From a virus (lineage: Duplodnaviria; Caudoviricetes): a stretch of 54,190 nucleotides of DNA. Position 1 is the first letter of the stretch, and every line of letters begins with the position of its first letter. Position numbers and translations under genes: made by a program. Below the pieces are notes generated by a model. It was not told the DNA's origin and searched no databases. It saw only the letters and a list, made by a program, of their open reading frames with translations. The stretch lies in the IMG/VR virus record IMGVR_UViG_3300003267_000167, positions 1 to 54,190 of that record; one strand, written 5' to 3'. This document shows, piece after piece, positions 7,019 through 42,228 of this stretch.

Positions 7019-10000
7019 ATGGCGGATCAACAGATTGACACTCTGCTAAGATTTTTGGGCGAAGATGCCGGGGCGCTGGCGGCCATCAATGCCGTGTCTG
7101 CATCCTTGCAGGCGGCGGCCGCGCAGAGTCAAGCCCTGTTCGCGCCCATAATCGCCCAAGCGGCGCAAGCCGCCTCCGTCGTGCAGACGCTTACGACCGC
7201 GACGAACGCCGAAACCGACGCAGCCACACGGGCGGGCGGCGGCGAGCGCGAGCGCGCGTCAAGCGTCCTGGCGTTGGCGCAAGCCGTCGCGCGCTTGCAA
7301 GTCGCCGAAGGCAACGCGGCCGGCGCGGTGCAAACCCTCAAAGCCGCCTTGAGTGAGGCCGAAGCGGGCACCGTTCAATACGTCAACGCCCAACGGCAGC
7401 TTGTCACAATTGAGGCGCAGCTTGCCAATGCGGCCAGCAAGGCGGATGCCGAGATCGTCAAGCAGGCGTCCACACTCGCACGGCTGGCGCAAGTCTCCGG
7501 CGACTCCGCCAAGGCGCTGAAGATCATTGAGGACGCCCAAGCGCGGCTTGCGAATCCCAACTCCCTGGCGGCCGCGCGCCTGGAAATCCAAAAGACGTAT
7601 CTTAATACGAACTACGCGAATAGTCCGCTAGTCGGGATGCTGCAACAGATCAACGCCGGCCTTGGCCGCTTTTCGCCCTTACTCGGTTCAAGCGGCCGGC
7701 TAGTGCAGACCTTCACGGGCGGTCTCGCGCAAGCGGCGGCCAGTTTGGGCAGCACGAAGGCGAATCTTGACGCCAACGCGGACAGCGCGAATAAGTTTTT
7801 CGAGCGGTTGCGGAATGCGAATCAAGCCGTCGTGGATTTTGTCAAAGATCAGAAGGGCGAAGCCAGCGCGACGGACTTCTTTTTGAATTTATCGAAACAG
7901 GCGAGCGCGGCCGGAGATCGCATCCGGTCGGTTTTCGCCAATATCCGGCAATCGCTCGAAAATGCCCTAGGACCGAGCGGCGGCGGAAATGGCCTCGTTA
8001 CTACCCTTGGGCTAGGAAACGTCGCGCCAGCGGCAAACCAGGCGACAGCAACGCTATCAGGCTTGACGACGGCCGCCGAAGGGTCGGCCGAAGGCTTGGG
8101 CGCGGTCGGCGCGGCGGGCGGCGCGTCGGCGCTTGCCTTGGGCGCAGTGGTCGGCGTCGTCCTGGCCTTGGTTGCCGCGCTGGCGATCCTAATCACGTCG
8201 CTAACAGCCGGCACGAAGCTTTTAATTGACATGGGGGAGGCGGGCGTCAAGGCGAACGCCGACCTTGAGCATTTAAACCTTGGCCTGGCGTCCGTGATAA
8301 ACGGCATCGGCGAAGTGAGCCGGAACGGGATCAAACTGACCGGCGCGGAACAATTCCAAGCATCGCTCGCGCTGGCGACGGATCAAGTCACCAAACTCCG
8401 GCAAGAGGCGGCCGCCGTGGGCTTGCCCGTGCAAGAGGTTGTGGAGGGCTTGCAGACCACAGAGGGGCCGCTAACCCGCTTCGGTCTGAGCTTGGACGAC
8501 GCCCGCAAAACAACCATTAACATCGCCCTGGCGATGAACGCCTTGGGCATTCCCTTACGTGAAATCGGCCAGGAATCGCGCGCCATCCTGCAAGGCCAGA
8601 CCGACCGGACCGCGCGCTTGAATCAAATCCTTCAGATCACCAAAGAAGAGTTGGCCGCCGCCAAGGCGCGGAACGACGTGCAAGGCTTACTGAATGAACG
8701 GTTGGCCGGTTTCGCGGCCGGAGGCGCGGCCTTCGCGCAATCCTTTGACGGCGCGGTAGCGCGGGCACAATCCCGATTGACCGACCTTGAGCGGACCGTC
8801 ACGGGCGGATTATTTGAGGCGTTAAAGACGAAGCTTAACGACGTGCTAGATTCCGTCGCCAAGGCGGGCGGGCTTCAAAACCTTTTCGGCGGCATTGCCG
8901 ATACCCTCACGCGCATCTTTGACACGGCGGGCGGGACCATCGGCAAGGTAATTGATTTTATTTTTTCGAGTCTGCAAGCCGTTGACCGCTTCCTAGCGCA
9001 AAACCGGGAGACGGTCGGGGAGATCATCGAAGAGGTAAACCAAATTATTACCCTGATAGGCAGTACCGTCGCGGGCGTTTTGCGAATCACGCTTGGCGCA
9101 CAAGACGCCGGCAAAGAGGCGAACGTTTTAGCGGGCATCTTGCGCGCCGTCGTGGTTATCGTCGGCCTGGTCGGCGACGGGATCAAGATATGGATTTCCT
9201 CTTTCCTGACGGTCGGCAACGCCTTGAAATTGGCCGTCATTGCGCCGCTTGAGGTCACGGTGAAGCTTTTCGCGGCGCTGGTCTCCGGCATCCCGTTTAT
9301 CGGGGCGGCGGCCGACCGGGCGGCGAACGCCCTGGAATCGTCGCGCAAGTCCGCCGTCGCGGGCGTTACGGAGAGCGCAAAGAATTTCGCATCATCCATT
9401 GCGAACATCGGCCAGGCGTCCAAGCGCGCGAGCGAAGCCATAGACGAAGCCCGAAAGAAGGCGGCGGCCGGCCAGCGCGTGACGGCGCAAGCGGGCGCAC
9501 CGTCAACGGCGGGTCTCGCCTTTCAGGCCAGGCCGGGCACGCCGGACGACAAAAACAAGGGCGGCAAAGGGGCACTGGACGCGGCGCGGGCGTCGGCCGA
9601 AGCCCTATTGCGGATCACGCAGCTTGCCGAAAAAGAGGCGGCGCTTGCCAATCAACGGATCACGAACGCCCTGCGGCAATCGCTCACGGATCGTTTGATC
9701 TCAATCGAGACCTTTACGGAGCTTTCGATTCAGGCGGAGCGGGACTTGCTAGACGCTAAGCGCGCGGCCTTTGACGCCGAAGAGAAGGTCATTAACGACG
9801 GCGCGGCCAGCGAAGAGTCGGCGGCCATCAAATCGAGCAAAACGCGCGAAGCGGCCGCCAATAAGATCACGGCCATTGACGCCAAGCGGAACGAAAAGCT
9901 GGCGGAGTTAAACTTAAAACGCCAGGCGGCGGAGCAAGAGGCGGACATTAAGACCGAAGGCTTGCGCGACGATCTCCGGCGCGCGCAAGAGAAAAACGAG

Positions 10001-11341
10001 GAAGATCATCAAAACCGCCTCATTGCCATCTTGGAAGTCGGCCGGCGCGCGAGGGAGGCGAGCATCCGCACGTCGGCGAGCGTCGGCCTTGTGAGCTTTG
10101 AAGAGGCGGAAAAGCGGCTTGTGGAGATCGAGCGGGAGCGGTTCGCCGAACGGGAAGGCGCGTTAAACGCCGACCTAGAGCGGGCGCGTGAAGACGTGGC
10201 CAAGCGGGCGGAGATCCTAGACGAGCTGGCCAGGCTGGCGGCCGAACGCGCGGCCTTTGAAGAAGACGCTTCCAAGCGGATCATTGACGCACAGAAGAAA
10301 GAGGCCGAAGGCTTCACGGACTTAATCACCAAGCGCGTCCGGGCGCTTTCGGACTTGCGCCGGGCGCAGATTGACGCGCAAGCGGCGGAGACCGTCTTAG
10401 CGTTACAGCGCGGCACGATCACGCGCCAGCAAGCCGACGTGGCTGGATTTCAGCAGCGGCGCGAGCAATTGCGGATCGAGTCCGAAGAGAGAAAAGCCGC
10501 CATCCAGCGCGAAGCCTTGGACCTAATCGAACAAGCTAAGAATCGCGCGGGCGCGGCCGCCGCCATCGTGGACATTGAGCGCGTCAAAAACGAACGACTC
10601 AAGGCGGAGAAAGAGCGCGCGGCGGCCGAAGATGCGGCGCTCGAAAATCAGCAAAACGCGGTACGGCTTACGCCCATCTTCGGGGAGGACGCGGCGCAAC
10701 GGATCGCGGCCTTTGAGCAGACGACCGGCGCGGCCGCAACCACACTCGAAAAGCTACAGCTTGCCGCCCAAGCGACGGCAGACAGCTTGAGCGAGAGCTT
10801 GCCGACCATCGGAGAGCTTTTCGATCAATCCGCGCTGGCGGTTGCGAACGCCTCTGCAACGATGCTTTCAAGCTTCTTGAGCGGCAAAGAGCCAATCCGA
10901 AAGGCGGCGGCGGCCTTATTCGCGGCCGCGCTGCAACCTCTCAAGGATTATCTAAACAAGCGCGCACGGGCGGAGTTCGCCATCGCGGCGGCGGAGTTCG
11001 CGGCCGGCAACTATGTGGGAGGCGCTAAGCACACGCTCGCCGGCATCGCGCTAATCGGCGCGGCCGCGCTGATTGACGTAGGCGCGGGCCTCATTGGCGG
11101 CGGCGGGTCGGCGGGCGGCGCAATCGCGGGCGGCGGCGTCTCTTCGTCGGGCGGCACGCAAGACACGGGGCCGCGCGTGATTTCACAGGACACGCCGCGC
11201 CCGCAGCTTGTACCCGTGGTCATTCGGCCGGAGCTTAATTTCCGGGCGGACCTGACGGGCGGCATTCTTTCAATCGTCCATGACGACATCACAAACAACG
11301 GGCGCACGCGCGCCTTGATACAAGAGACCAACCCGGTTTGA
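7019..11341 (+). CDS. Tape measure protein, 1440 aa
   Basis: Longest ORF; Ala-rich helical and coiled-coil, hydrophobic segments; synteny. Confidence 0.92.
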   Translation: MADQQIDTLLRFLGEDAGALAAINAVSASLQAAAAQSQALFAPIIAQAAQAASVVQTLTTATNAETDAATRAGGGERERASSVLALAQAVARLQVAEGNAAGAVQTLKAALSEAEAGTVQYVNAQRQLVTIEAQLANAASKADAEIVKQASTLARLAQVSGDSAKALKIIEDAQARLANPNSLAAARLEIQKTYLNTNYANSPLVGMLQQINAGLGRFSPLLGSSGRLVQTFTGGLAQAAASLGSTKANLDANADSANKFFERLRNANQAVVDFVKDQKGEASATDFFLNLSKQASAAGDRIRSVFANIRQSLENALGPSGGGNGLVTTLGLGNVAPAANQATATLSGLTTAAEGSAEGLGAVGAAGGASALALGAVVGVVLALVAALAILITSLTAGTKLLIDMGEAGVKANADLEHLNLGLASVINGIGEVSRNGIKLTGAEQFQASLALATDQVTKLRQEAAAVGLPVQEVVEGLQTTEGPLTRFGLSLDDARKTTINIALAMNALGIPLREIGQESRAILQGQTDRTARLNQILQITKEELAAAKARNDVQGLLNERLAGFAAGGAAFAQSFDGAVARAQSRLTDLERTVTGGLFEALKTKLNDVLDSVAKAGGLQNLFGGIADTLTRIFDTAGGTIGKVIDFIFSSLQAVDRFLAQNRETVGEIIEEVNQIITLIGSTVAGVLRITLGAQDAGKEANVLAGILRAVVVIVGLVGDGIKIWISSFLTVGNALKLAVIAPLEVTVKLFAALVSGIPFIGAAADRAANALESSRKSAVAGVTESAKNFASSIANIGQASKRASEAIDEARKKAAAGQRVTAQAGAPSTAGLAFQARPGTPDDKNKGGKGALDAARASAEALLRITQLAEKEAALANQRITNALRQSLTDRLISIETFTELSIQAERDLLDAKRAAFDAEEKVINDGAASEESAAIKSSKTREAAANKITAIDAKRNEKLAELNLKRQAAEQEADIKTEGLRDDLRRAQEKNEEDHQNRLIAILEVGRRAREASIRTSASVGLVSFEEAEKRLVEIERERFAEREGALNADLERAREDVAKRAEILDELARLAAERAAFEEDASKRIIDAQKKEAEGFTDLITKRVRALSDLRRAQIDAQAAETVLALQRGTITRQQADVAGFQQRREQLRIESEERKAAIQREALDLIEQAKNRAGAAAAIVDIERVKNERLKAEKERAAAEDAALENQQNAVRLTPIFGEDAAQRIAAFEQTTGAAATTLEKLQLAAQATADSLSESLPTIGELFDQSALAVANASATMLSSFLSGKEPIRKAAAALFAAALQPLKDYLNKRARAEFAIAAAEFAAGNYVGGAKHTLAGIALIGAAALIDVGAGLIGGGGSAGGAIAGGGVSSSGGTQDTGPRVISQDTPRPQLVPVVIRPELNFRADLTGGILSIVHDDITNNGRTRALIQETNPV

Positions 11342-16261: not shown

Positions 16262-18019
16262 ATGCCGAACCATTCACAATCCGCATATGTTCACAAGGGC
16301 GCGCACATCGCCGCAACCGACCCGGAGACCACCTACGGCGGCACGTCGCTTTTGCAACCGGACGTAATTTGGATCAACACATCATCCGCGCCCTACCCTT
16401 GGAAAAAACGCAACGCCGGGAATACCGGCTGGGACGCGCTGAGCTTCAAAGGCCAGCTTGACGCCAACGGGCAAGTCCTTTCTGGCGTCGCTACGCCCGT
16501 GAGCGGGACCGACGCCGCGAATAAAACCTACGTGGACGGCGTAGCGGGCGCGGCCGCGCCCTTCGTGGACTCAACCGCCATCGTCAAGGGGTCGGGCGAC
16601 GCGACCAAACAGCTACGCTTTGAGGTGGACGGCTTCACGACCGGCACGACGCGCGTACTCACTGCGCCCGACTATAACGGGACGATAGCGACGCTCGCCG
16701 GGGCGGAGACCCTGACCAACAAAACGCTAGGCAGCACCATTGCCGTCACGGCCGCGATTAGCTTCACGGCCGGCGTTAAGCAGACCTTCGCGCCGGACGC
16801 GACGAACGCCGGGCTAAATGCCGGGAGCGTCGCCGGCAACCCGTCGTCATTGGCCAACGGTGACATTTGGTATGATTCAACCGCCAACGCATTAAAGGCG
16901 CGGATCAACGGATCAACCGTGAGCCTTGGCGCGGGCGGCGGCGGGTCGGGCACGGTCAATACGGGCGCATCCGGCAATATCGCCTATTATCCGAGCGCGG
17001 GCACGACGGTTGATGATGTACCCGGCTTTACGTCCGACGCCTCCGGCAACCTGACGGCGGCCGCGTCCGTGTCCACGTCGGGATCGCCGACGCTTTTGAC
17101 CGTCACGGGGCCGGCGCACACAACCCTTGCGGCCGGGACGGAAGCGCCGGACCTGCATTTCAATCTCGCCAGGACGGTGCAGTTTGCGACCGGGGCGCTA
17201 TCGCTGCAACGCGCCGTGCGATTCCGCGCGCCGACATGGGCTTTCGTCGGGGCGTCCACGCTATCGGACGCGATCAACGTGGACATTGACACGCCGACGC
17301 CGGGCACCAATGCGACCTTCACGCGCTCAACCGGCCTTCGGGTCAAAGGCAATAACAACGCCGATTGTTTGGTGTGGTTGGATCATAAAATTTCGAGCAC
17401 GGGCGAAGTGCTGGCGATGGGCCTTGTCGCCTCTAAGGTCGTCCGGTTTATTTCCAACGGAGGGACGATCAACAGCGTTATCAACGGCAGCGGGTCGGCG
17501 CTTTCATCGTCGGCGACGGACGGTTTTTTATGGTTGGGCGAATACTCCGGCACGGGCGCACCATCGGGCACGCCGACCAGCTACACGGGCGCGGAACCGC
17601 TCGTTATGCAGCGGGACAACATAAACGCGATCTATGACCTGTGGGCTTATTCAAATTCGGCCTGGCGATCCATCGGCGGCCAATTCAAACGGTATGACAC
17701 GACGAGCGGCAACGGCGCGCAGACGATAGACTTTAATTCGTCCGCTTCGGCGGTCGTCTCGCGCCAGTTTACCGCGTCGGGCGGCAACGCAACCCTGACG
17801 TTTTCCAACCCGCCGCGCGCCGGCAGTGTGGTCGTGATTATGATCGTTCAAGACGGCAGCGGGAGCCGCACGATCACATGGCCGGCGTCCGTCAAGTGGC
17901 AAGGCGGCAGTGGCAACGCGCCGACCCTCACCACGACGGCGGCCGCGAAAGACATCTTTTCGTTTTTGTATGACGGGACGAATTATTATGAGCTTTCGCG
18001 TCAGTTGAATGTGAGCTAG
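16262..18019 (+). CDS. Tail fibre / receptor-binding protein
   Basis: DAANKTYVD, ETLTNKT, and C-terminal QDGSGSRTITWPASVKW...APTLT...DIFSF.YDGTNY fibre domain. Confidence 0.85.
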   Translation: MPNHSQSAYVHKGAHIAATDPETTYGGTSLLQPDVIWINTSSAPYPWKKRNAGNTGWDALSFKGQLDANGQVLSGVATPVSGTDAANKTYVDGVAGAAAPFVDSTAIVKGSGDATKQLRFEVDGFTTGTTRVLTAPDYNGTIATLAGAETLTNKTLGSTIAVTAAISFTAGVKQTFAPDATNAGLNAGSVAGNPSSLANGDIWYDSTANALKARINGSTVSLGAGGGGSGTVNTGASGNIAYYPSAGTTVDDVPGFTSDASGNLTAAASVSTSGSPTLLTVTGPAHTTLAAGTEAPDLHFNLARTVQFATGALSLQRAVRFRAPTWAFVGASTLSDAINVDIDTPTPGTNATFTRSTGLRVKGNNNADCLVWLDHKISSTGEVLAMGLVASKVVRFISNGGTINSVINGSGSALSSSATDGFLWLGEYSGTGAPSGTPTSYTGAEPLVMQRDNINAIYDLWAYSNSAWRSIGGQFKRYDTTSGNGAQTIDFNSSASAVVSRQFTASGGNATLTFSNPPRAGSVVVIMIVQDGSGSRTITWPASVKWQGGSGNAPTLTTTAAAKDIFSFLYDGTNYYELSRQLNVS

Positions 18020-18302: not shown

Positions 18303-18332
18303 TTGACAGCCTTTCCCGCCTTGGCGTAGATT
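18303..18332 (+). promoter_or_regulatory. Sigma70-like promoter with operator in the spacer
   Basis: TTGACA-18-TAGATT; spacer contains CCGCCTTGGCG. Confidence 0.75.
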
Positions 18333-18497: not shown

Positions 18498-19214
18498 ATG
18501 ACCAACGTGCAGAACGCATTTAAGCACAACCGGGCGCGGCAAAACGTTATCGTCGGCGGCGGGTTGATACTCGTTTGTATCACCCTTTTAAGCTGCGTCT
18601 CTTCGTTCATGATCTATCGGGAGGGCTTTTCAGATACGCCCTTCTTTATTCAAAATATCCTCAGTCTCTTCGCGGTCCTAGTGGTAGAAGGCGCGTTTAT
18701 TTGGCTGGTTTACGGCTTCACGCGCGCCTTTTCGAGCTTTATGGAGCGGATCATCAGCCTGGCCGGCATGGTCTTTTTGGTCTCCGTGATGCTCACCAAT
18801 ATCGTCACACATTTTATGATGGTGAAACATTTGGCGCTGTCCACGTTCCAACAGGCATGGCTGAGTTGGGGCGCGGTTTCCGTCTTTATCGGCGTCCTGA
18901 TTTTCGTCCTGTTAATCACGCTGGCGGATCCGGTTTCGCGGCTAATCCGGCTTGAGCTTCGCTACCAAGGCCGACAGCAAGAGACGATCATTCAGGCCAA
19001 GACGGAGGGCTTAAATTCCGAGCATGTGCAACTGGCGATGATCGAACGGGCAGAGATCGAAGCGAAGCAATTAGCGGATCGGATCGTTGGCGGTGAGACT
19101 CAACTTACGCCGCGAAAGCGCGTGCGAATGATTCAACAAGAGCCTTTGGAAAACTTTGATGCCGGCGACGGGGAGAAACCGAAGGGAAAAGGGCGCGGCC
19201 GGAGTTGGATTTAA
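18498..19214 (+). CDS. Integral membrane protein (about 4 TM) with helical C-terminus
   Basis: Four hydrophobic segments; GGAGG RBS. Confidence 0.85.
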   Translation: MTNVQNAFKHNRARQNVIVGGGLILVCITLLSCVSSFMIYREGFSDTPFFIQNILSLFAVLVVEGAFIWLVYGFTRAFSSFMERIISLAGMVFLVSVMLTNIVTHFMMVKHLALSTFQQAWLSWGAVSVFIGVLIFVLLITLADPVSRLIRLELRYQGRQQETIIQAKTEGLNSEHVQLAMIERAEIEAKQLADRIVGGETQLTPRKRVRMIQQEPLENFDAGDGEKPKGKGRGRSWI

Positions 19215-19229
19215 TCCCCGACCCGGCCG
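19184..19229 (+). other. Predicted -1 programmed ribosomal frameshift signal
   Basis: G GGA AAA in the correct phase, then after 5 nt a hairpin CGGCCGG...GGAT-TTA-ATCC...CCGGCCG; the -1 frame is the 19205-19900 ORF. Confidence 0.7.
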
Positions 19230-19900
19230 AATATCAACCGACCGACGCCGACGAAGCATGGTTGAGCAAGCTCGAAAAAGAGCTTGCCGACCTTGGCGCG
19301 GTCAAAGACTTTGGGGGTAGTGATGTTTCTAGTAATTCTGGCCTTCGGCGGCCTGGCGCTGTGTTTGATGGTAGCATTCGGCCGCCAACGGAGGACATAG
19401 ACAATGGACCAAAACATGAAAGCGGAGATCATCCGAAAGACTCTGACGGGGATCATGGCGGGCTTGATTTCCCTTCTGATTCCGAAGCTTCTAGTGTAAC
19501 GCCGGGGCGTGTGGAACCGGATACACGCCTCAAATCAGAAGGCAAAAAACGACACGCGCAACCGGAGACACCAAGGCCGGAAGCGGCCGATGTGGAACCG
19601 GATACACGGACCAAAAAACGCAAGGCTGTGGAACCGGATACACATCGTCACAAGTCGAATAAACGCGGCGACTTGCGGCCGCCGACCATTCCGGGTCATA
19701 AATGGAAAGCGTCGGGCTATACCGGTTTTGAACTATACACCCGCAGAGCGTCAAAATCGGCGAGCGGCAAGCGATCATCCAAGGGCGATTATGTCGCCTA
19801 TTATTCACGTCAAGACATGGAGGATTTTATCAATGAAAGAAAAAAGACGGCCAACATTAGGCCAGCTAAGGGCGGCCGGCGTGGAACTGTGCGGCCTTGA
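19190..19900 (+). CDS. Disordered linker plus basic C-terminal domain; probable frameshift extension of the membrane protein
   Basis: Open -1 frame; own TTG start has GGAG directly abutting (poor RBS spacing); VEPDT x3. Confidence 0.7.
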   Translation, partial: RARPELDLIPDPAEYQPTDADEAWLSKLEKELADLGAVKDFGGSDVSSNSGLRRPGAVFDGSIRPPTEDIDNGPKHESGDHPKDSDGDHGGLDFPSDSEASSVTPGRVEPDTRLKSEGKKRHAQPETPRPEAADVEPDTRTKKRKAVEPDTHRHKSNKRGDLRPPTIPGHKWKASGYTGFELYTRRASKSASGKRSSKGDYVAYYSRQDMEDFINERKKTANIRPAKGGRRGTVRP

Positions 19901-20076
19901 GTGCGCGTGGATTCGCGCCGAAGCGGGAAGGCAAGGCAAGGCCGATGTGGAACAAAAAGCATTAGAGTATATCCGGGCGGCGGACCTGACGCCCGAAATG
20001 GTCATAGAGCTACGGCGGGAAGTATTGCCGGCCGATGTGGAACCGGCCGCGCTTGTGGAACTGCCCGAAGTGGAAC
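19511..20076 (+). repeat. Eight co-oriented GTGGAAC repeats (three as TGTGGAACCGGATACAC)
   Basis: Copies at 19511, 19592, 19628, 19881, 19947, 20037, 20055, 20070. Confidence 0.9.
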
Positions 20077-20090
20077 GTATGGCCGCGTGA
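19833..20090 (+). CDS. Hypothetical protein (85 aa)
   Basis: GGAGG RBS before ATG 19833. Confidence 0.7.
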   Translation: MKEKRRPTLGQLRAAGVELCGLECAWIRAEAGRQGKADVEQKALEYIRAADLTPEMVIELRREVLPADVEPAALVELPEVERMAA

Positions 20091-20183: not shown

Positions 20184-20220
20184 AAAAAGGCCGACCGGAT
20201 TCAAACCCGGTCGGCCTTTT
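20184..20220. terminator. Bidirectional intrinsic terminator
   Basis: AAAAAGGCCGACCGG-loop-CCGGTCGGCCTTTT between convergent genes. Confidence 0.85.
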
Positions 20221-20256: not shown

Positions 20257-20874
20257 CTATGCCGCCGCGTCCGGCTTGTCGCGCTTTTTCTTCGCCTTGG
20301 CCGTTTTCTTTCCGGCAACCTTGGCCGGTCGTTTCTTGCTCGCCTTCCCGTTCGCGCTGGCGGCCGTCGTGCCTTTCTTTCGCACGTCCTTATTTTGGCG
20401 AGCTTTGAAATCGTCAAAAAATTCCGCGCATTCGTCGCAGAGAGGACGGCCGCCGCGCTTTGTGGTTGCGTCTGTGGTGATGTCATTCGCGGCACATTCC
20501 GCGCACCGTGGTTTCGTCTTCCCTTGGGTAGCCGTCGCGCCTTTCTTTCGCGCGGCCTTTGAAGTTTGCGGGAAGTCGAACAGCACGCCCATAGGGGTAT
20601 CCGGGCCAAGGCCGAAGGCGTCACAGATTTTTTGCAGCGTCGCAAAATTCAATTGTTTCGGCGGTTCGCCCATTGGCGCGCCGGACTTATCGAGCCGTTG
20701 ATTGATGAAAAGCGGGATCGTTTGATCGCTTGAGGCAATGCCGAGAAACCGACCCAACCGGCTTGCATTGGTCACGGGCACGGTCAGCAGTTTGCCGCCT
20801 TCGTTAATCTCAACCGTCGCGCCTTTTTCCTCACACAATTCCTTGATGCGTAGTCCGATGATGTTTGGTTTCAT
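20257..20874 (-). CDS. Cro/CI-type HTH repressor with CxxC...CxxC motif and Lys/Ala-rich tail
   Basis: LRIKELCEEKG...LNFATLQKICDAFG...GVLF XRE-like pattern; only clear minus-strand gene; divergent from the early operon. Confidence 0.75.
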   Translation of the reverse strand: MKPNIIGLRIKELCEEKGATVEINEGGKLLTVPVTNASRLGRFLGIASSDQTIPLFINQRLDKSGAPMGEPPKQLNFATLQKICDAFGLGPDTPMGVLFDFPQTSKAARKKGATATQGKTKPRCAECAANDITTDATTKRGGRPLCDECAEFFDDFKARQNKDVRKKGTTAASANGKASKKRPAKVAGKKTAKAKKKRDKPDAAA

Positions 20875-20884
20875 AGTGGCGCGC

Positions 20885-20913
20885 AGTGTACACGCCAGAG
20901 CGGGCGGACGCAA
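20885..20913 (-). promoter_or_regulatory. Leftward repressor promoter (near-leaderless)
   Basis: TTGCGT-17-TACACT on the minus strand, 10 nt before the ATG. Confidence 0.65.
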
Positions 20914-20927
20914 CGCCAAAACGCAGC

Positions 20928-20956
20928 TTGACATATCTCCGCCTTGGCGGTATGGT
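20928..20956 (+). promoter_or_regulatory. Rightward early promoter with operator
   Basis: TTGACA-17-TATGGT; spacer contains the palindrome CCGCC-TT-GGCGG. Confidence 0.85.
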
Positions 20957-21009
20957 GCGTGCGCGACGCGGGGGAAGGCCGCGTACATTTCAATCATAGG
21001 AGACCTGAC

Positions 21010-21321
21010 ATGAGATACAACGTGCAATATAGCGACGAATTGCCAAGGGCGACGTTTGCCAATAGAGACCACCAACGCCTTTTGCGGTTTCTTAATTTCC
21101 ATCTCGTTAAGTGGGATATTGAGGATTACTTTTGGAAGGCGTCAGTGAGTGACGACGGGAGGCCAAGGTTTATCCTTTGGTCCCGTCCGGGCGTTAATTC
21201 GGATAGCTACGATATTCGGGAGATCATCGAGGCCGACAATCTCCGCCCGCTTTACTACGCGGCCATGTCCATCACGCGCCAGCATCGCGGCAACCGAAAG
21301 GAGATCAATCATGACGCATAA
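21010..21321 (+). CDS. Hypothetical early protein
   Basis: TAGGAG RBS before ATG 21010. Confidence 0.65.
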   Translation: MRYNVQYSDELPRATFANRDHQRLLRFLNFHLVKWDIEDYFWKASVSDDGRPRFILWSRPGVNSDSYDIREIIEADNLRPLYYAAMSITRQHRGNRKEINHDA

Positions 21322-21767: not shown

Positions 21768-22298
21768 ATGAAAGAAAGACTAAGGAAGATTTACGAACTA
21801 GCAACGCGCGGCGTAGGAGGCGAGCGTGAGAACGCTCAACGATTACTTGAGCGGCTTTTGGCGGAGCACAACTTAACTATTGAAGACCTGGCCGGCGACG
21901 AAAAGAAGCTTTATTACTTCCGATATTCAGAGGGATGGGAAAAGAAGTTAATACTTCAGATTGTGGCCAAGGTAACAAACGTAAGCACTATTGAACCTTG
22001 GGTGCGTAAGGGCTGGCGAAAAGCGCGCGGCTTTGAACTGACGGCGGCGGAGTTTGCGGAGTGCCAACTACTGCTTGAAGAGTACCGCAAGGCATACCGG
22101 AAAGAGTTGGAACGCCTTTTCAGTGCATTCGTTCAACGTAACCGGATTTTTGGGGATGGCAAGGCCGACGAATCCAACACGACGCCGGAGCAATGGGCGG
22201 AGCTTGAGAAAGTCCTAGCGATGGCGCGCAGCCTTGATGTGGTCCCGATACCGCGCAAGCGCCTTGTAGAAGGCATATCAGAGGGGGTAGAGATATGA
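21768..22298 (+). CDS. DUF2786-like protein
   Basis: LRKIYELATRGVGGERENAQRLLERLLAEHNL N-terminal motif. Confidence 0.7.
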   Translation: MKERLRKIYELATRGVGGERENAQRLLERLLAEHNLTIEDLAGDEKKLYYFRYSEGWEKKLILQIVAKVTNVSTIEPWVRKGWRKARGFELTAAEFAECQLLLEEYRKAYRKELERLFSAFVQRNRIFGDGKADESNTTPEQWAELEKVLAMARSLDVVPIPRKRLVEGISEGVEI

Positions 22299-25200
22299 AT
22301 AACACATGGCAACCAATTATGGCCGCGCTTCGCTATCTCGCCGGCCTTTGCGACGGCGCGCAGTCGGAAGACGGCCAAGGCTTCAATAAACCCGACTCTT
22401 TGCGCTGCAAACGTTGGGCGGCGCTCGAAAGCTTGAACGAACGCCAGGCGCGCGACGCTTACGACCGTCTCCGCAAGTACACGGCGCAGCTTGACGCGGG
22501 CGGGATAGACTTCACCAAGCTGCCCGTGCCGCCAAACGAGCGGTTGCAGGCGTCGGACCTGATACGGCCGAACGCCGAACAGTCCAAGCGGCGGGACACG
22601 GACGCCCGCGCGATCCGGGCCGGGAAAGACGCCGAAGGGGATCACTTTCAACTTTCCTGGCCGTATTCCGACGTTGCCGCATTGCTTGAGCCGATGAAAG
22701 ACCATTTCACGGCGCGGCGGTACGTGCAGCAACCCTACAAGCATTGGCGCGTACCGGCCGACTACCGCGCCGCGCGCCTGATGGAGTTCGGCGTTGCGTA
22801 TGACTTTGAAATTTCGCCGGAGGCGTGCGCCTTGTTCGACTCCATCACCATCCCTGACGCCTTGCCCGAAGGCGAAAAGCCCAAACACCCGGACCGCATC
22901 ATCAAGCGCGATCTCTTTCGCCCGGAGCGCAAAGGGAAAGCGCCGAAAGAGGGCATCGGCATTTATTTCGATTACGTGCCGGCGATTCACGCGGCCGTCA
23001 AGGAAATGGTCTCGCCGCAGTATTTCGGCGAAGGCGCGCGGCATTGGGTCGTCTCGCTCGATTCCGCCGCCGCCGTCGCCAAGCTCGCGGCGGAGTTCGG
23101 TTTCAACGTCGAACCGGAGACCCGCGCACTACTCGAAAGCGAAGCCGCCAAGGCGGACGCGGCCGCCAGCCTGGCCGCCAAGCGAAAGGCCGTCTTGATG
23201 AAGGCGGCCGAAGATATCCCGCGCGGCAACTTCGGCGGCAAAACGCCGCGCGATTATCAGGCGGCGGGCGTCAGTCGGATGCTTGAGGCCGGGCGCAGCA
23301 TCCTGGCCGACGATATGGGGCTGGGGAAAGGTCAACCCGCAAGCGGCAAAGTTGCGACGCCTAACGGCTGGCAGATGATTGGTACTCTTCGGCCGGGGGA
23401 TTATGTTATCGGGTCAGATGGCAAGCCTGTTAGTGTGCGCGCCGTTTACTTGCGCGGCGTACTACCAATCTTCAAAGTAACTTTTTCGGATGGCTCAAGC
23501 TTAGATGTAGACGCCGACCATATTTGGACCGTCAAGGACCACAACACACACCATAGGGGCGGAGATTGGTACACGATGACCACACGCGAGCTTATGCTAA
23601 AGGGTCTAAAGGATGGCAACGGTAACAGGAAATACCGTATCCCGATGGTAAAGCCCGTAATCTTTGACCATCAGGACTTACCTTTTGATCCGTACCTAAT
23701 GGGCGTCTTCTTAGGGGATGGAAGCTTTAGCAGCGGGTACAACTTCAACATCTGTACCGGAGATGAAGCCGTACCCGCCGAATGCATGCGCGTGATGCCG
23801 CGCGGCGCGAGTCTTGAAAGGATCGAACCGAAAGAGCGCGCTGTCTATTGGAAGCTTCGCGGATTTTCGCGGCCTCTCTTTGAATCGCTTGGGCTGCTAG
23901 GCTCAAAGGCTGAAACCAAGCAAATTCCCTGGCAATACATGCACGGATCGCCCGACCAAAGACTAGCCCTGTTACAAGGCTTGATGGATACAGACGGCAC
24001 GGCGAGCTTAGATGGTTGCGTGTCTTTTTCGTCGGCAAGCTCAAAGCTCGCGCGTGGTGTTATTGAGTTAGTTCAATCTCTCGGAGGTACGGCGCGGCTT
24101 AGCCTGAAACGTGCGCCAAAGTTTAGCTATAAGGGCGAACAGAAAACCGGGCAACCGTCATGGATCGTAACGCTAGCAATGCCGGAGAGGATGAATCCTT
24201 TTCGGGCTTTTGCGTCTCGCTATAAAGAGCGGACGAAATACCCGCCGCAACGGCTAATCGAATCCATTGAAGCTTACGGCCAAGATGAGGTTGTATGTAT
24301 TTCGGTTGACGCGCCCGACTCGCTTTATGTAGCAGAGAGCTACATCGTTACCCACAACACGTTTGAGGGCATGCTGTGGGCAAGGTGCTACCAACGGGCG
24401 TTCGGCGCGCACGTCTTCATCGTCTGCCCGGTTGCCCTAATGGGCGGATGGATCGAAGAGGCGGCCGCGTGTCACGTCCGGGCGGAGGTTTATTCATGGG
24501 CGAAAGTGCCGCCGCCGCCTTCGTCGCCCTTCGTGCTGATATGCGACGAAGCCCACTATGCACAGTCCATTAAAAGCCAGCGAACGCAAGCCGTCCTAGA
24601 GCTATCGGAAAGCGAGCATTGCCTTGGGGTCGTCATGGCGACGGGGACGCCCATGCGCGGCGGCCGGCCGGTTAATATCTTCCCGCTACTGAAGGCGGTC
24701 AAACACCCCTTGGCGCGCAATAAGTCCAAGTTTGAGGAAAGATACTGCGCGGCGCATCAACGCACGGTCCGCACGGGCGGCCGGACGGTCAACATTTGGG
24801 ACACGACCGGCGCGGCGCACCTTGACGAATTGATGCGGGAGATTGCGCCGCAATTCCTACGCCGGACGAAAGAGCAAGTGTTGAAAGACTTGCCGGCAAA
24901 AACGATCCTGCCCAAACCCGTGGACGTGGACGCCGAAGGCATGGCGATTTATCAGGAAGCTTTCAATAAAGCCCAAGCGCAATATAACGACCGGCTGGCA
25001 AAGGGCGAAATCAAGGAAGGCGCGGAGGCGCTTGTCTTATTGACGCACCTAAAACGCGCGGCCGCGCTCGCGATGGTCAAACCGGCGATTGACCTGGCGG
25101 ACGAAGTAATAGAGCAAAAGCGCAAGGTCTTGATGTACTCGGAATACCCGGAGGTCTGTGAAAAGATCGCGGCGCATTACCGATCGCAAGGCGTCGGCGC

Positions 25201-25630
25201 GGAAGTCCTAACCGGCCAGGTAAAGGCGGAGGACCGCGACACGTCGGTTAAACGTTTCCAGTTTGGCGCGTCGCGCGTCTTTTGTCTGACGAAGGCCGGG
25301 GGCGTCGGCCTGACGTTGACGGCCGCGTCTGACGCTTTCTTAGTAGATCAGCCTTGGATGTGGGATGACGTCGCGCAGATCGTTGACCGGCTACACCGTA
25401 AGGATGCCGTCATGGCGGAGCGGATCGAAGCCGGCCAGGCCATGCCGGTCAACGCCTATTTACTGTCCGGCTTTGAAGTCAATCAGAAAATTCAAGCGCG
25501 GCTTTTTGACCAACGGCGGGCGCTTGGGAAGGTCATGGCCGGCGACCGGCGCACGATGCGGGGCGTTCAAAGCGTCCACGATATAGCCAAGGAAATCGCG
25601 CATGAACTATTCGGAGGGCAAAACAAATGA
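22295..25630 (+). CDS. SNF2-family (HARP/SMARCAL1-like) helicase interrupted by an intein
   Basis: RDYQ, LADDMGLGK|T, DEAH, TGTP, LRRTK, GGVGLTLTAA, QIVDRLHR motifs; HARP-like N-terminal repeats. Confidence 0.9.
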   Translation: MNNTWQPIMAALRYLAGLCDGAQSEDGQGFNKPDSLRCKRWAALESLNERQARDAYDRLRKYTAQLDAGGIDFTKLPVPPNERLQASDLIRPNAEQSKRRDTDARAIRAGKDAEGDHFQLSWPYSDVAALLEPMKDHFTARRYVQQPYKHWRVPADYRAARLMEFGVAYDFEISPEACALFDSITIPDALPEGEKPKHPDRIIKRDLFRPERKGKAPKEGIGIYFDYVPAIHAAVKEMVSPQYFGEGARHWVVSLDSAAAVAKLAAEFGFNVEPETRALLESEAAKADAAASLAAKRKAVLMKAAEDIPRGNFGGKTPRDYQAAGVSRMLEAGRSILADDMGLGKGQPASGKVATPNGWQMIGTLRPGDYVIGSDGKPVSVRAVYLRGVLPIFKVTFSDGSSLDVDADHIWTVKDHNTHHRGGDWYTMTTRELMLKGLKDGNGNRKYRIPMVKPVIFDHQDLPFDPYLMGVFLGDGSFSSGYNFNICTGDEAVPAECMRVMPRGASLERIEPKERAVYWKLRGFSRPLFESLGLLGSKAETKQIPWQYMHGSPDQRLALLQGLMDTDGTASLDGCVSFSSASSKLARGVIELVQSLGGTARLSLKRAPKFSYKGEQKTGQPSWIVTLAMPERMNPFRAFASRYKERTKYPPQRLIESIEAYGQDEVVCISVDAPDSLYVAESYIVTHNTFEGMLWARCYQRAFGAHVFIVCPVALMGGWIEEAAACHVRAEVYSWAKVPPPPSSPFVLICDEAHYAQSIKSQRTQAVLELSESEHCLGVVMATGTPMRGGRPVNIFPLLKAVKHPLARNKSKFEERYCAAHQRTVRTGGRTVNIWDTTGAAHLDELMREIAPQFLRRTKEQVLKDLPAKTILPKPVDVDAEGMAIYQEAFNKAQAQYNDRLAKGEIKEGAEALVLLTHLKRAAALAMVKPAIDLADEVIEQKRKVLMYSEYPEVCEKIAAHYRSQGVGAEVLTGQVKAEDRDTSVKRFQFGASRVFCLTKAGGVGLTLTAASDAFLVDQPWMWDDVAQIVDRLHRKDAVMAERIEAGQAMPVNAYLLSGFEVNQKIQARLFDQRRALGKVMAGDRRTMRGVQSVHDIAKEIAHELFGGQNK
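23330..24358 (+). mobile_element. Intein (343 aa) with LAGLIDADG homing endonuclease, class 3 signature
   Basis: Inserted in Walker A GK|T; ends VTHN|T; LMGVFLGDG and LQGLMDTDG; W-C-T triad. Confidence 0.92.
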
Positions 25631-28681: not shown

Positions 28682-30910
28682 ATGGAATATGGCGAATTTT
28701 TAGCGTCGAAAGCGGCGCGGGTTGAGGACGCGGGGAAAGACCCGCAGTCAATTAACCGGCTTTTATTCACATGGCAGGCCGATATCGTCAAATGGGCGAT
28801 CAAGCGCGGGCGCGCGGCGATCTTCGCGGACTGCGGCATGGGCAAAACCCTGATGCAAGTCGAATGGGCGCGACAAATGGGCGAGCGCGTGCTAATCGTC
28901 GCGCCGCTCTCCGTCGCGCAGCAAACCATCGAAGAGGCAAAAAAGCTGAACGTAGAGATCGTCTACAAAGCCGCGCCGGATGATTCAGGCGGCATCTGGA
29001 TTACGAACTATCAAAAGCTTCATAAGTTTGTCGGCGTGCCATTTGATGCCATCGTGCTTGACGAATCTTCGATCCTCAAAAGCCTGGACGGCAAAACGCG
29101 CACGCTCTTACTTGAGCAATTTACGACCATCCCGTACCGCCTTTGCTGCACGGCGACGCCAAGCCCGAACGATCAGACGGAGCTAGCCAATCACGCGGAG
29201 TTTTTGGGCGCAATGTCGCGCGTTGAAATGCTCGCCACTTTCTTCGTCCACGACTCCGACCGGGCAGGGTCAAACGGCTGGCGGCTGAAAGGGCATGCGA
29301 AGGATGACTTTTGGCGATGGGTTGCACAGTGGGCCGTGTACATTCGCAAGCCGAGCGACCTAGATCACCCGGACGGCGATTTCATCCTGCCGCCGCTCAA
29401 CGTCCGCCAGGTACAAGTTGAATCGAACTTCATCCCAGACGGAAAGCTATTCCCAGACATTACGGCGGGCATTACCGGCCGCACGCAGGCGAGGCGTCAC
29501 ACGATGGACGCGCGCATCAACCGGGCGGTAGAGATTATCAAGAAATCAAAAGGGCAGTGGGTTGTGTGGTGCGGATTGAACGACGAAGGCCAGAAGATCG
29601 CCAAGGCGCTAGGACAGAAGGCGGCACTCATCGAAGGATCAACCGACGATGAATCACGCATCACGCTTGAGTCATGCTGGCGCGCGGGGAAGGTCAAAAC
29701 GCTCATCACGAAGCCGGGCATGTTCGGCTTCGGCCTCAACTGGCAGCACTGCCATCAAGTCATGTTCCTTGGGTTGGGGGATAGTTTCGAGCAGTGGTAT
29801 CAGTCCATCCGCCGATGCTGGCGATTCGGGCAGAAGTCGGCCGTTGATGTGGTCGTTGTTACGTCCGACGCGGAAATCAGCATCGTCGAAAACGTACAGC
29901 GCAAAGAGCAGCAGGCGTCCGAAATGGCGGCCGGCATCGTCGCCGCGATGAAGGACGCCCAAATTGAATCGGTACTTGGTAAACTTTCACGAAAGGATCA
30001 TTACACGATGAAAACGAAAAAGGCGGAGCAGTGGGAAGTCAAAATGGGCGATTGCGTGGAACGGGTCAAAGAGATCGAGACGGGCAGCGTCGGGCTGTCA
30101 ATCTTCAGTCCGCCGTTTAGCCAGCTTTATACGTATTCGGCCAGCGATCGCGACATGGGCAACACGAAAGATCACGCGGCATTTTTCGATCATTTTCGAT
30201 TTTTGATCCCTGAGCTACTGCGCGTGACGATGCCGGGCCGGCGTTGCTGCGTCCACGTTCAGCAAGTCGCACAGACGCTCGTCAAAGATGGCGTGATAGG
30301 GTTGTACGACTTCCGCGCCGACGTGGTGCGCGAGTTCGTCAAGGCGGGATGGGTTTACGATGGCGAAATTGTGATTGACAAAAACCCGCAAGCGCAGGCC
30401 ATCCGCACGAAGGCGAAGCAATTAATGTTCGTGCAAAAGAATAAGGACAGCGCATGGAGTCGTCCCGCGATGGCGGATTACATCCTGCTCTTTCGCTCGC
30501 CAGGCGCTAACGCCCAACCTATTACGCAATCGGCGACCAGTGGCGTCACCAATGAAGAATGGATCAAGTACGCGCATCCAATCTGGTACGACATCAACGA
30601 ATCCGACACGCTGCAATATACGAGCGCGCGAGAGCATCAAGACGAAAAGCACATCTGCCCGTTGCAGCTCGAAACCATCCGCCGATGCGTCCGGCTGTGG
30701 TCGAATCCGAATGACTTAATCCTTGACCCGTTCGCCGGGATCGGGTCAACCGGGCATATCGCAATGGAGCAGGATCGGCGATTCGTCGGGATCGAACTGA
30801 AGGAGTCGTATTGGAAGCAGGCCGTTAAAAACCTTCAGAACGCGGTCAAACAGCAAGCACTCTTCACGCCAGGAAGGGAAGCGCATGAATCCGTCGCCGT
30901 CCCCGCTTGA
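28682..30910 (+). CDS. SF2 helicase fused to an N4/N6 DNA methyltransferase
   Basis: DCGMGKT, DESS, TATP, QSIRRCWRFGQ; then SPPF and LDPFAGIGST, GIELK. Confidence 0.9.
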   Translation: MEYGEFLASKAARVEDAGKDPQSINRLLFTWQADIVKWAIKRGRAAIFADCGMGKTLMQVEWARQMGERVLIVAPLSVAQQTIEEAKKLNVEIVYKAAPDDSGGIWITNYQKLHKFVGVPFDAIVLDESSILKSLDGKTRTLLLEQFTTIPYRLCCTATPSPNDQTELANHAEFLGAMSRVEMLATFFVHDSDRAGSNGWRLKGHAKDDFWRWVAQWAVYIRKPSDLDHPDGDFILPPLNVRQVQVESNFIPDGKLFPDITAGITGRTQARRHTMDARINRAVEIIKKSKGQWVVWCGLNDEGQKIAKALGQKAALIEGSTDDESRITLESCWRAGKVKTLITKPGMFGFGLNWQHCHQVMFLGLGDSFEQWYQSIRRCWRFGQKSAVDVVVVTSDAEISIVENVQRKEQQASEMAAGIVAAMKDAQIESVLGKLSRKDHYTMKTKKAEQWEVKMGDCVERVKEIETGSVGLSIFSPPFSQLYTYSASDRDMGNTKDHAAFFDHFRFLIPELLRVTMPGRRCCVHVQQVAQTLVKDGVIGLYDFRADVVREFVKAGWVYDGEIVIDKNPQAQAIRTKAKQLMFVQKNKDSAWSRPAMADYILLFRSPGANAQPITQSATSGVTNEEWIKYAHPIWYDINESDTLQYTSAREHQDEKHICPLQLETIRRCVRLWSNPNDLILDPFAGIGSTGHIAMEQDRRFVGIELKESYWKQAVKNLQNAVKQQALFTPGREAHESVAVPA

Positions 30911-41452: not shown

Positions 41453-41758
41453 ATGGCCAGAGATCACGACGTTTCAGTAGACGAATTATTGCAGGCGGCG
41501 ACCGAAGCCGAAACCGTAGGGGACTCCGCGGTTGCCTTGGTGCAATCCCTCCGCGACCAAATTGCCGCATACACGAGCGGTCAGCAAATTTCGCCCGCGA
41601 CGCAGCAAGGAATCAACGCGATTTTTGACAAGGTTTTGTCAGAGCGCGGCAAGTTGGAACAGGCCATCACAGCCAACACGGACACGGGCGGCGGCGGTGA
41701 CACGGGCGGCGGCACTGGCGGCGGCGGTGACACTGGCGGCGGAACGCCGACGCCCTAG
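41453..41758 (+). CDS. Small acidic helical protein with Gly-rich tail
   Basis: GGAGG RBS; ETVGDSAVALVQSL; DTGGGG repeats. Confidence 0.75.
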   Translation: MARDHDVSVDELLQAATEAETVGDSAVALVQSLRDQIAAYTSGQQISPATQQGINAIFDKVLSERGKLEQAITANTDTGGGGDTGGGTGGGGDTGGGTPTP

Positions 41759-41821
41759 ACTTTTCCGGCGCTGTCTTGATAGCCCAAGGCACAAGCCTTG
41801 GTTCTCCTTATCTCGTTATCC

Positions 41822-41854
41822 GGCGGGGCGTCTAACCAGCGTCCCGCCTTTTTT
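41822..41854 (+). terminator. Intrinsic terminator
   Basis: GGCGGGGCG-loop-CGTCCCGCC-TTTTTT. Confidence 0.75.
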
Positions 41855-41862
41855 GTTGCCTT

Positions 41863-42228
41863 ATGGACGCATCACAAGAACAAAAATTCAGAGCATGGCT
41901 TAACGAACCGCAGCCGCCGACGCCTCCGGGCCTTGAGCCGCCGCCCGTGCCGACGCCGACGCGGTTGGATTACTTTTGTTATTTGGTCGCATGCAACGGC
42001 GGTAAAACGGTCGTCCGCGGTTGGGGCGTCATTGGCTACGGGGCCGGACCGTTTAAGCAAGGTCTCGAAATGCGCGAAGCCTTGGACCTAATGCAACTTG
42101 TCGCCTTTATTACGGGCGTGGAGTTCGTTTGCGGCGGGGCGCAAGCTCTCATGGACCCGATGATTGACGCTTGGCTGAAAGCCAGGCTTGCCGAACATGA
42201 GGCCGCCAACAATGCCGGAAGAATTTGA
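41863..42228 (+). CDS. Hypothetical protein
   Basis: ORF fills the gap. Confidence 0.5.
   Translation: MDASQEQKFRAWLNEPQPPTPPGLEPPPVPTPTRLDYFCYLVACNGGKTVVRGWGVIGYGAGPFKQGLEMREALDLMQLVAFITGVEFVCGGAQALMDPMIDAWLKARLAEHEAANNAGRI

Follow-up and report, generated by a model that had tools for sequence, protein, structure and literature searches.

Introduction

Conserved -1 ribosomal frameshifts are few in ordinary bacterial chromosomal genes, dnaX and copA of Escherichia coli being the textbook cases, and the copA heptamer is C CCA AAG. In dnaX, a chromosomal and non-mobile gene, slippage on an X XXA AAR heptamer upstream of a stem leads to tau and gamma, which have the N-terminal part in common and differ in their C-terminal domains; the frameshift gives the shorter of the two. 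In phages, the shift between the tail assembly chaperone genes G and GT (G GGA AAG in lambda) appends a C-terminal domain. In the membrane-protein gene copA, as outlined in PMC5009743, a -1 frameshift brings translation to an early end and yields a 70-aa soluble chaperone. The present analysis concerns two overlapping open reading frames (ORFs), gene A and part B (18498-19900), of the virus record IMGVR_UViG_3300003267_000167; this whole 54-kb stretch of DNA (54,190 nucleotides, G+C 59%) is called the window. Gene A and part B are very probably joined by a conserved and canonical -1 frameshift.

Compared with the described systems, the A/B pair resembles dnaX in its chromosomal, non-mobile relatives, in its heptamer type with a predicted stem and in products that would be common N-terminally. 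However, the shift would here add 236 residues, the gene families are unrelated, and the upstream Shine-Dalgarno-like stimulator of dnaX is not conserved in the A/B family. As in copA, the site lies inside a membrane-protein gene, and 30 relatives carry the C CCA AAR type; the predicted outcome differs, since the A/B shift would join a soluble domain to the membrane part. With G/GT the pair shares the heptamer type and the appended C-terminal domain. Identity with these tail assembly chaperones was nevertheless rejected, because gene A follows the tail-fibre gene (16262-18019) instead of preceding the presumed tape-measure ORF, and its predicted product is a four-helix membrane protein of a mostly chromosomal family. 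The tape-measure assignment is by size alone: the longest ORF of the window (7019-11341, 1440 aa), which is far upstream of A, has no PHROG match. A literature search for programmed ribosomal frameshifting together with Acidobacteria led to a paper that has Acidobacteria in a genome table only, and whose supplementary clusters might hold the family (PMC3711429). A search for ribosomal frameshifting with Blastocatellia gave no match, and one on phage, slippery and transmembrane returned, by title and abstract, nothing on such a gene.

A conserved, probable signal for -1 frameshifting

The ORF of gene A ends with AAG GGA AAA GGG CGC GGC CGG AGT TGG ATT TAA, in which G GGA AAA stands in the X XXY YYZ phase and the stop codon (19212-19214) comes eight sense codons past the heptamer. 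The -1 frame is closed by a stop to about position 19160 and then open through 19900, and the overlap between A and B amounts to 17 codons. The canonical features of a frameshift site, i.e., an in-phase X XXY YYZ heptamer and an overlapping -1 ORF with a near zero-frame stop, are present in the window. Slippage at this point would give the junction ...KPKGK/RARPELDLIPD and a long form of 231 + 236 = 467 aa. A hairpin begins after a 5-nucleotide (nt) spacer; its region folds with -26.2 kcal/mol over 77 nt, and its stability corresponds to z = -2.04 relative to 55-nt windows from the same locus. Contigs from four DNA runs of one study, three of them possibly the window's own source, are indel-free over 18900-19500. 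We infer that A and B form one recoded gene, the slippage and its rate included.

The locus had been singled out in a sequence-only reading, whose description largely agrees with ours. Re-reading of the sequence returned the same heptamer in the same phase and at the same distance from the stop, and translation gave the same junction peptide and the same 467-aa long form. The -1 ORF to 19900 has, as it had stated, no well-spaced ribosome-binding site, GGAG lying directly against TTG 19205. Its four-transmembrane protein is matched by four hydrophobic segments and a four-helix model, and its non-structural gene by a location between the tail-fibre gene and the helix-turn-helix (HTH) and helicase genes. 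As for the hairpin, the outer stem CGGCCGG/CCGGCCG is found 5 nt downstream of the heptamer as described, whereas the inner GGAT/ATCC pairing is not part of the minimum-energy fold, which pairs GUUGG (19204-19208) with CCGAC (19218-19222).

On the + strand of the window, only three heptamers have a frameshift-like ORF geometry. Because the background rate of in-phase heptamers, counted over the bodies of 56 homologous genes, is 36 per 11906 codons, one would fall within the 17-codon overlap by chance in about 5% of cases. Taken alone, the window site is not compelling; the case beyond chance is made by the homologues. Eight virus and 48 genome loci were fetched, of which one (L053) was dropped as its gene runs off the contig, leaving 55 relatives; together with the window (L001) they make up the 56 genes. 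In 54 of the 55 relatives, the A stop lies within a -1 ORF of 131 aa or more, the 55th being cut by a contig end; a +1 ORF of this length is found in two. An in-phase X XXA AAA heptamer lies within the A/B overlap of 50/55 relatives. Counting the window (n = 51), the types are C CCA AAA (30), G GGA AAA (17), A AAA AAA (3) and A AAA AAG (1). Over the 56 genes, 51 heptamer words were in phase and two out of phase. This concentration is also seen in the last 60 nt, where in-phase heptamers reach 60 per 1120 codons, as compared with the background rate elsewhere.

The position of the site is fixed with respect to part B. The -1 frame opens at the heptamer or 3 nt earlier in 14/51 loci. From the heptamer start to the A stop there are 7-28 nt in 45/51 loci and 49-283 nt in the other six, and the heptamer and the -1 peptide that follows keep their position wherever the stop falls. 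A maximum-likelihood tree was built with 54 A proteins (leaving out L001, i.e., the window, the partial L055 and L057), on which at least 10 changes of heptamer label are required. The window, of the GGG type, is sister to L011, of the CCC type, with 91% identity (support 99/88). Hence, the site appears to have been replaced repeatedly, by slippery heptamers in the same phase only. The encoded residues vary (GK, PK, KK) while pattern and phase are constant, so that conservation is found at the nucleotide level. The arrangement is kept over A-protein identities of 56%-93%, in syntenic chromosomal loci and in viruses.

Conservation was also observed past the heptamer. A 7-bp stem that begins 7 nt past it is common to 16 G/A-type relatives, and in two of its pairs both bases have changed; the window stem lies in a different register. 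In the G/A clade, a test of single-base codon differences on the DNA directly past the heptamer gave the most synonymous differences in the -1 frame (0.41 vs 0.26 and 0.15). Besides, a GCC 8-10 nt past the heptamer (19198-19200 in the window) was near-invariant over the 43 sequences aligned: its G and its second C never vary, and its first C is retained by at least 90% of the C-type sequences (n = 26) and at least 70% of those of the G/A type (n = 17). Because the G is a third position of -1 codons under varied amino acids, this conservation suggests a role at the nucleotide level. The positions of all features are collected in Table 1.

Table 1. Positions in the window of genes A and C, part B, the putative frameshift site and nearby features
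Feature	Position	Strand	Remarks
Sigma-70-like promoter candidate	18303..18332	+	TTGACA, 18 nt, TAGATT; 10/12 consensus matches; ~165 nt 5' of A
Gene A, zero frame	18498..19214	+	238 aa, 26.8 kDa; four hydrophobic helices, cytoplasmic helical extension (predicted), disordered basic tail
Slippery heptamer G GGA AAA	19184..19190	+	X XXY YYZ phase of gene A
Part B, -1 frame	19190..19900	+	236 codons after the putative slip; ORF listed from TTG 19205; acidic linker and basic domain
Hairpin	19196..19229	+	CGGCCGG 19196-19202 / CCGGCCG 19223-19229; 5-nt spacer after heptamer; contains A stop
Three identical 17-mers TGTGGAACCGGATACAC	19510..19651	+	linker-coding DNA; read as VEPDT(R/H)
Conserved C-terminal domain of B	19685..19867	+	five predicted strands and one helix; model mean pLDDT 72
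Shine-Dalgarno GGAGGA of C	19819..19824	+	8 nt before ATG; within helix-coding part of B
Gene C, frame of A	19833..20090	+	85 aa; overlaps B 3' end by 68 nt (19833-19900, B stop included)
Five further GTGGAAC copies	19881, 19947, 20037, 20055, 20070 (19881..20076)	+	B end and C
17-nt inverted repeat	20185..20220	.	94% complementary arms, 2 nt between; between C and convergent gene 20257-21102

Separate expression of part B and other alternatives

Several observations weigh against a frameshift. The heptamer is absent in five relatives (L005, L006, L008, L009 and L043), the last of which has A TCA AAA at the site, and since many loci are close kin, 50/55 does not stand for 50 independent events. 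In E. coli, X XXA AAA is less shifty than X XXA AAG. The fold of the window hairpin is unexceptional at 59% G+C (z = -1.23; 22/200 shuffles as stable), the downstream 55-mers have a mean z of just -1.14 versus windows of the same loci, and 26 C CCA AAA relatives are without a consensus 3' structure. The synonymous-site signal is absent in the C-type clade. Protein or ribosome-profiling data for the locus were not found, and no RNA run among the sequencing runs contains the stretch.

Of the competing accounts, the one that survives best, improbable as it is, has B made as a separate protein, from its own start at TTG 19205 or at another GTG/TTG, or by termination-reinitiation, the heptamer being incidental. 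In the window, TTG 19205 is indeed 7 nt before the A stop, its GGAG adjacent without a spacer, and the GTG that G-type relatives have at -1 codon 12 is preceded, 3 nt before, by GGAG. Across the loci, however, neither a start codon nor a spaced Shine-Dalgarno sequence is conserved for B: the position of the first GTG/TTG of the -1 ORF varies, without a spaced Shine-Dalgarno sequence, and 22/51 loci have no ATG within the first 80 -1 codons. Gene callers do place the domain in proteins 66-250 aa long; such lengths would be expected if they start B at arbitrary internal codons. A start of its own is most plausible where the heptamer is lacking. Four of the heptamer-less relatives (L005, L006, L008 and L009), which form one virus clade on the A tree, have GGGGG, a spacer of 7 nt and a -1-frame ATG 20 nt past the stop, and B seems able to start by itself there. 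Elsewhere, separate translation leaves unexplained the excess of in-phase over out-of-phase heptamers, the switching among slippery heptamers only, the fixed place of the heptamer where the A stop is 49-283 nt off, and the existence of natural fusions.

These fusions are one-frame relatives that carry both the membrane part and the C-terminal domain, namely P0105 (334 aa), P0210 (308 aa) and P0233 (310 aa). Each is a single metagenome sequence, and the three are mutually divergent while having a common architecture; P0210 is 41% identical to A (E 5e-59). A search for fused forms of 418-2000 aa scored none among 2066 candidates, which is weak evidence given that the fusions found are of 308-334 aa. 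Open frames of 290-375 aa in three genomes were also considered as fusions and rejected, being upstream read-through of loci already sampled. Since fusions and a heptamer-less virus clade both exist, three states of the family can be told apart, i.e., fused, frameshift-linked and separate. The sequence-only reading had named in-frame fusions and a slippery site conserved in homologues as checks, and both were found; the independent initiation at TTG 19205 that it had put forward as a refutation gains no support from the variable starts described above.

A fusion of A and B at the mRNA level, by slippage of RNA polymerase on the A run with gain or loss of a base in a share of the transcripts, is highly improbable. 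Established cases of transcriptional slippage need runs of about seven or more bases, and A runs of 6-8 bases do occur in L002, L016, L017 and L021; the other 47 of the 51 loci have four A's only, and the XXX before the A's together with the codon phase is a ribosomal signature. Lastly, the absence of any functional link, with a mere overlap or a decayed fusion gene that the chance estimate and the ordinary hairpin of the window would by themselves allow, is hardly credible for an arrangement kept over such a range of A identities, in chromosomal as well as viral loci, and with a B domain that is clearly conserved.

Predicted products

According to the proposed -1 frameshift, most ribosomes would end at the A stop and release the 238-aa protein, a four-helix protein of the inner membrane. 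On G GGA AAA, a fraction of ribosomes would move into the -1 frame by tandem slippage, possibly aided by the hairpin. In the slipped product, the membrane anchor would be followed by some 160 residues of acidic, disordered linker and then by a basic domain of some 70 residues with a sheet-plus-helix fold, both located in the cytoplasm. As a consequence, the cell would contain a fixed mixture of the bare membrane protein and a form that carries a cytoplasmic, possibly nucleic-acid-binding domain.

In A, the hydrophobic segments span residues ~13-42, 48-75, 80-110 and 119-152, and the N-terminus is basic. The AlphaFold model has four long helices, another helix at 175-198 and a disordered tail; the N-terminus is predicted to be inside and the tail cytoplasmic. 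Homologues are numerous (569 proteins at E <= 0.001; identity 65-100% among the 120 matches listed). A had no Pfam match at E <= 0.1, Foldseek with the A model returned none on PDB at E <= 0.001, and a protein atlas search gave unnamed clusters only; a PHROG 'lipoprotein' family (E 0.0033) and one NCBIfam entry (E 0.057) were matched weakly, far under the cut-off. No match was obtained in the phage collection by blastn and tblastn with the region and A, and no viral contigs were found in searches with single proteins.

Part B begins with a short conserved peptide after the junction; the linker that follows is variable, being acidic in the window, and leads to a conserved domain of about 70 aa, which has a basic, aromatic composition and a pI of 10.5. 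A profile of this domain collected 212 cluster representatives, nearly all of 66-250 aa with the domain C-terminal; the protein P0231 is 57% identical to the domain of the window over 83 aa. B diverges fast: with tblastn against all loci, window B retrieved itself alone. Searches of Pfam, PHROG and NCBIfam gave nothing over the cut-off for B and C.

The composition of the B domain, together with weak fold matches, suggests nucleic-acid binding. In the structural search, the top rows were PC4/Sub1 proteins, i.e., 6ycs (Z 4.5, root-mean-square deviation 2.9 over 57 residues), 5zg9 (4.2), 5a4n (4.1) and 4bhm (4.0). The best rows also include PUR-alpha 5fgo (Z 3.8) and 4bg7, and a PC4-like protein of phage T5 is among them, the rows ranging over Z 2.9-4.5. 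The likeness to PC4/Sub1, PUR-alpha and Whirly-type proteins consists in strands followed by one helix; the difference is that identities are 2-8% and that no profile matches. In that fold, a sheet of four strands packs on one C-terminal helix, and the B-domain model has five strands and a helix. Three points count against a functional reading of these rows. All Z values are below 5, in the range of common arrangements. Sequence searches with the domain gave no match, neither to PC4, PUR or Whirly families in Pfam with 38 domain sequences (E <= 1) nor in PDB by profile (0 matches at E <= 10), and Foldseek on PDB with the domain model gave none at E <= 0.001. Moreover, PC4-type domains bind single strands without sequence preference, which fits poorly with specific repeats as targets. 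Binding of nucleic acid by the C-terminal domain, with the long form tying DNA or RNA to the membrane and the short form not doing so, is proposed with low confidence.

Chromosomal and viral settings

The A/B family is mainly chromosomal and, in Blastocatellia, lexA-linked. In 28 of the 47 genome loci, A is preceded on its own strand by the gene of a LexA homologue (Peptidase_S24 and LexA_DNA_bind domains), usually with a divergent zinc-ribbon protein as well; downstream are DinB-family, glyoxalase/bleomycin-resistance-like or SRPBCC proteins, or GlmM. Because both heptamer clades share this synteny, the locus can be regarded as an orthologous chromosomal one. Among 151 sampled genomes of the class, 23 had a match, mostly in single copy. 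None of the nine virus loci (the window and eight others) has lexA-type neighbours, and homologues of the window's neighbour genes were absent from the other fetched loci. A LexA box of the form GTTC-N7-GTTC, which may not be the operator of these bacteria, occurs in 15/57 loci, scattered and without a fixed place before A.

Between lexA and A, a conserved non-coding element was observed in 20 genome loci (L020:2690-2780, L036:2785-2885 and 18 further loci) and not in the window. It comprises an invariant block followed by a hairpin of 13 bp, whose loop is conserved and in which both bases have changed in 10 of the 13 pairs across these loci; Rfam and tRNA searches found nothing at it. Another observation concerns two relatives close to the window. 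L011, a non-syntenic copy, and L014, a lexA-linked copy, come from the same metagenome-assembled genome, and the A protein of the window is close to L014 also. This kinship is a hint as to the lineage of the host, and a hint that host and phage have exchanged the gene.

Gene C and the short repeats

Part B is followed by gene C, and a similar layout is found in the chromosomal loci. In 38 loci, a C-like ORF of 88-99 aa in the frame of A overlaps B, its start lying 38-62 nt ahead of the B end, and in about 38 relatives an AAGGAG ribosome-binding site lies within the MKEY motif of B; overall, conserved ORF C is present in 39 of the 47 genome loci. Chromosomal C is highly conserved and of no known family. 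No sequence similarity was detected between the window C and chromosomal C, the layout alone being alike. A predicted complex of the B domain with the chromosomal-family protein C scored 0.01.

The linker-coding DNA of the window carries three identical 17-mers, and further copies of their GTGGAAC core are found up to within gene C (Table 1). Of the 14 GTGGAAC copies of the window, eight are within 566 nt (19511-20076), all on the + strand, with a whole-window expectation of 5.6 +/- 2.5; each of the eight reads Val-Glu in its local frame. The other heptamer-bearing virus loci (L002, L003, L004 and L007) have 11-mers of their own, in 3-4 copies at the same places, and control windows have no such repeats. 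Among the 47 genome loci, repeats were found in L050 alone, as a tandem array past the B stop and within gene C. Proteins from the domain-profile search also carry such peptide repeats. The repeats of the virus loci look like element-specific binding sites.

Possible roles of the two products

In the host, a role of the family in the DNA-damage or SOS response is tentatively considered, because of the lexA linkage and of the DinB-family and bleomycin-resistance-like neighbours. SOS-regulated membrane proteins of the YneA, ChiZ and SidA type likewise stand beside lexA, as in the lexA-linked genome loci and unlike the window. To our knowledge, which was not extended by a search, no SOS-linked membrane protein has been studied in Acidobacteriota.

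For the virus-borne copies, the likely target would be the short direct repeats that lie within the linker-coding DNA and immediately past it. Tethering of phage DNA by the phage copy is a tentative proposal as well, put forward because of these repeats and of the position beside replication genes. Short direct repeats within coding DNA, in a gene beside the replication module, are known from lambda O and SPP1 gene 38; the difference is that the repeats of the window reach into the next gene, that the sites are putative here and that chromosomal relatives are without them. The phi29 protein p16.7, which binds DNA and is anchored in the membrane, organises the replication of that phage. By analogy only, its membrane anchor, helical stalk and C-terminal nucleic-acid-binding domain are those predicted for the long form, whereas p16.7 has a single transmembrane helix, is made without a frameshift and shows no detected relation in sequence or fold to A/B.

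A more elaborate and rather unlikely scheme combines these elements in a dosage device: nucleic acid would be anchored to the inner membrane by the long form, and the short form, free of cargo, would compete for the same membrane assembly, the cargo being phage DNA, via the repeats, or damaged or single-stranded host DNA in the SOS response. In the phage version, this would create a membrane-attached site of replication or segregation.

If A and B are indeed frameshift-linked, a gene family of several hundred members would be added to the recoded genes, from a soil phylum that has been studied little and from its phages. The frameshift-linked, fused and separate states found side by side would offer a natural system for asking why a fixed ratio of short to long product is kept. 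The annotation would have to be corrected, since at present arbitrary internal codons are taken as the start of the second ORF. If, in addition, the long form did tether nucleic acid to the membrane, the family would give an entry point to the SOS-linked and phage-replication biology of Acidobacteriota.

Other features of the window

Besides the tail-fibre gene, the window contains a portal gene and helicase genes (22295-25630 and 28682-30910). The tail-fibre gene is followed by a gap of 478 nt and the three + strand ORFs A, B and C (18498-20090), after which come divergent-HTH and helicase genes. The gene at 20257-21102 on the - strand, with a weak HTH match, is convergent with gene C, and the inverted repeat between the two is likely a bidirectional terminator. 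In the A region, four promoter-like sites were counted versus 1.1 expected, by consensus matching alone. No tRNA was found in the window or in the seven loci searched, and no Rfam family at the locus.

Elsewhere on the + strand, further frameshift-like geometry was observed at T TTT TTG 41849 (ORFs 41532-41903 and 41863-42228) and at A AAC CCG 44670. The helicase-like ORF 22295-25630 encodes 1111 aa, of which residues ~280-690 match PHROG terminase, primase and helicase loader families. Because these internal matches are to unrelated enzymes, they suggest an inserted intein.

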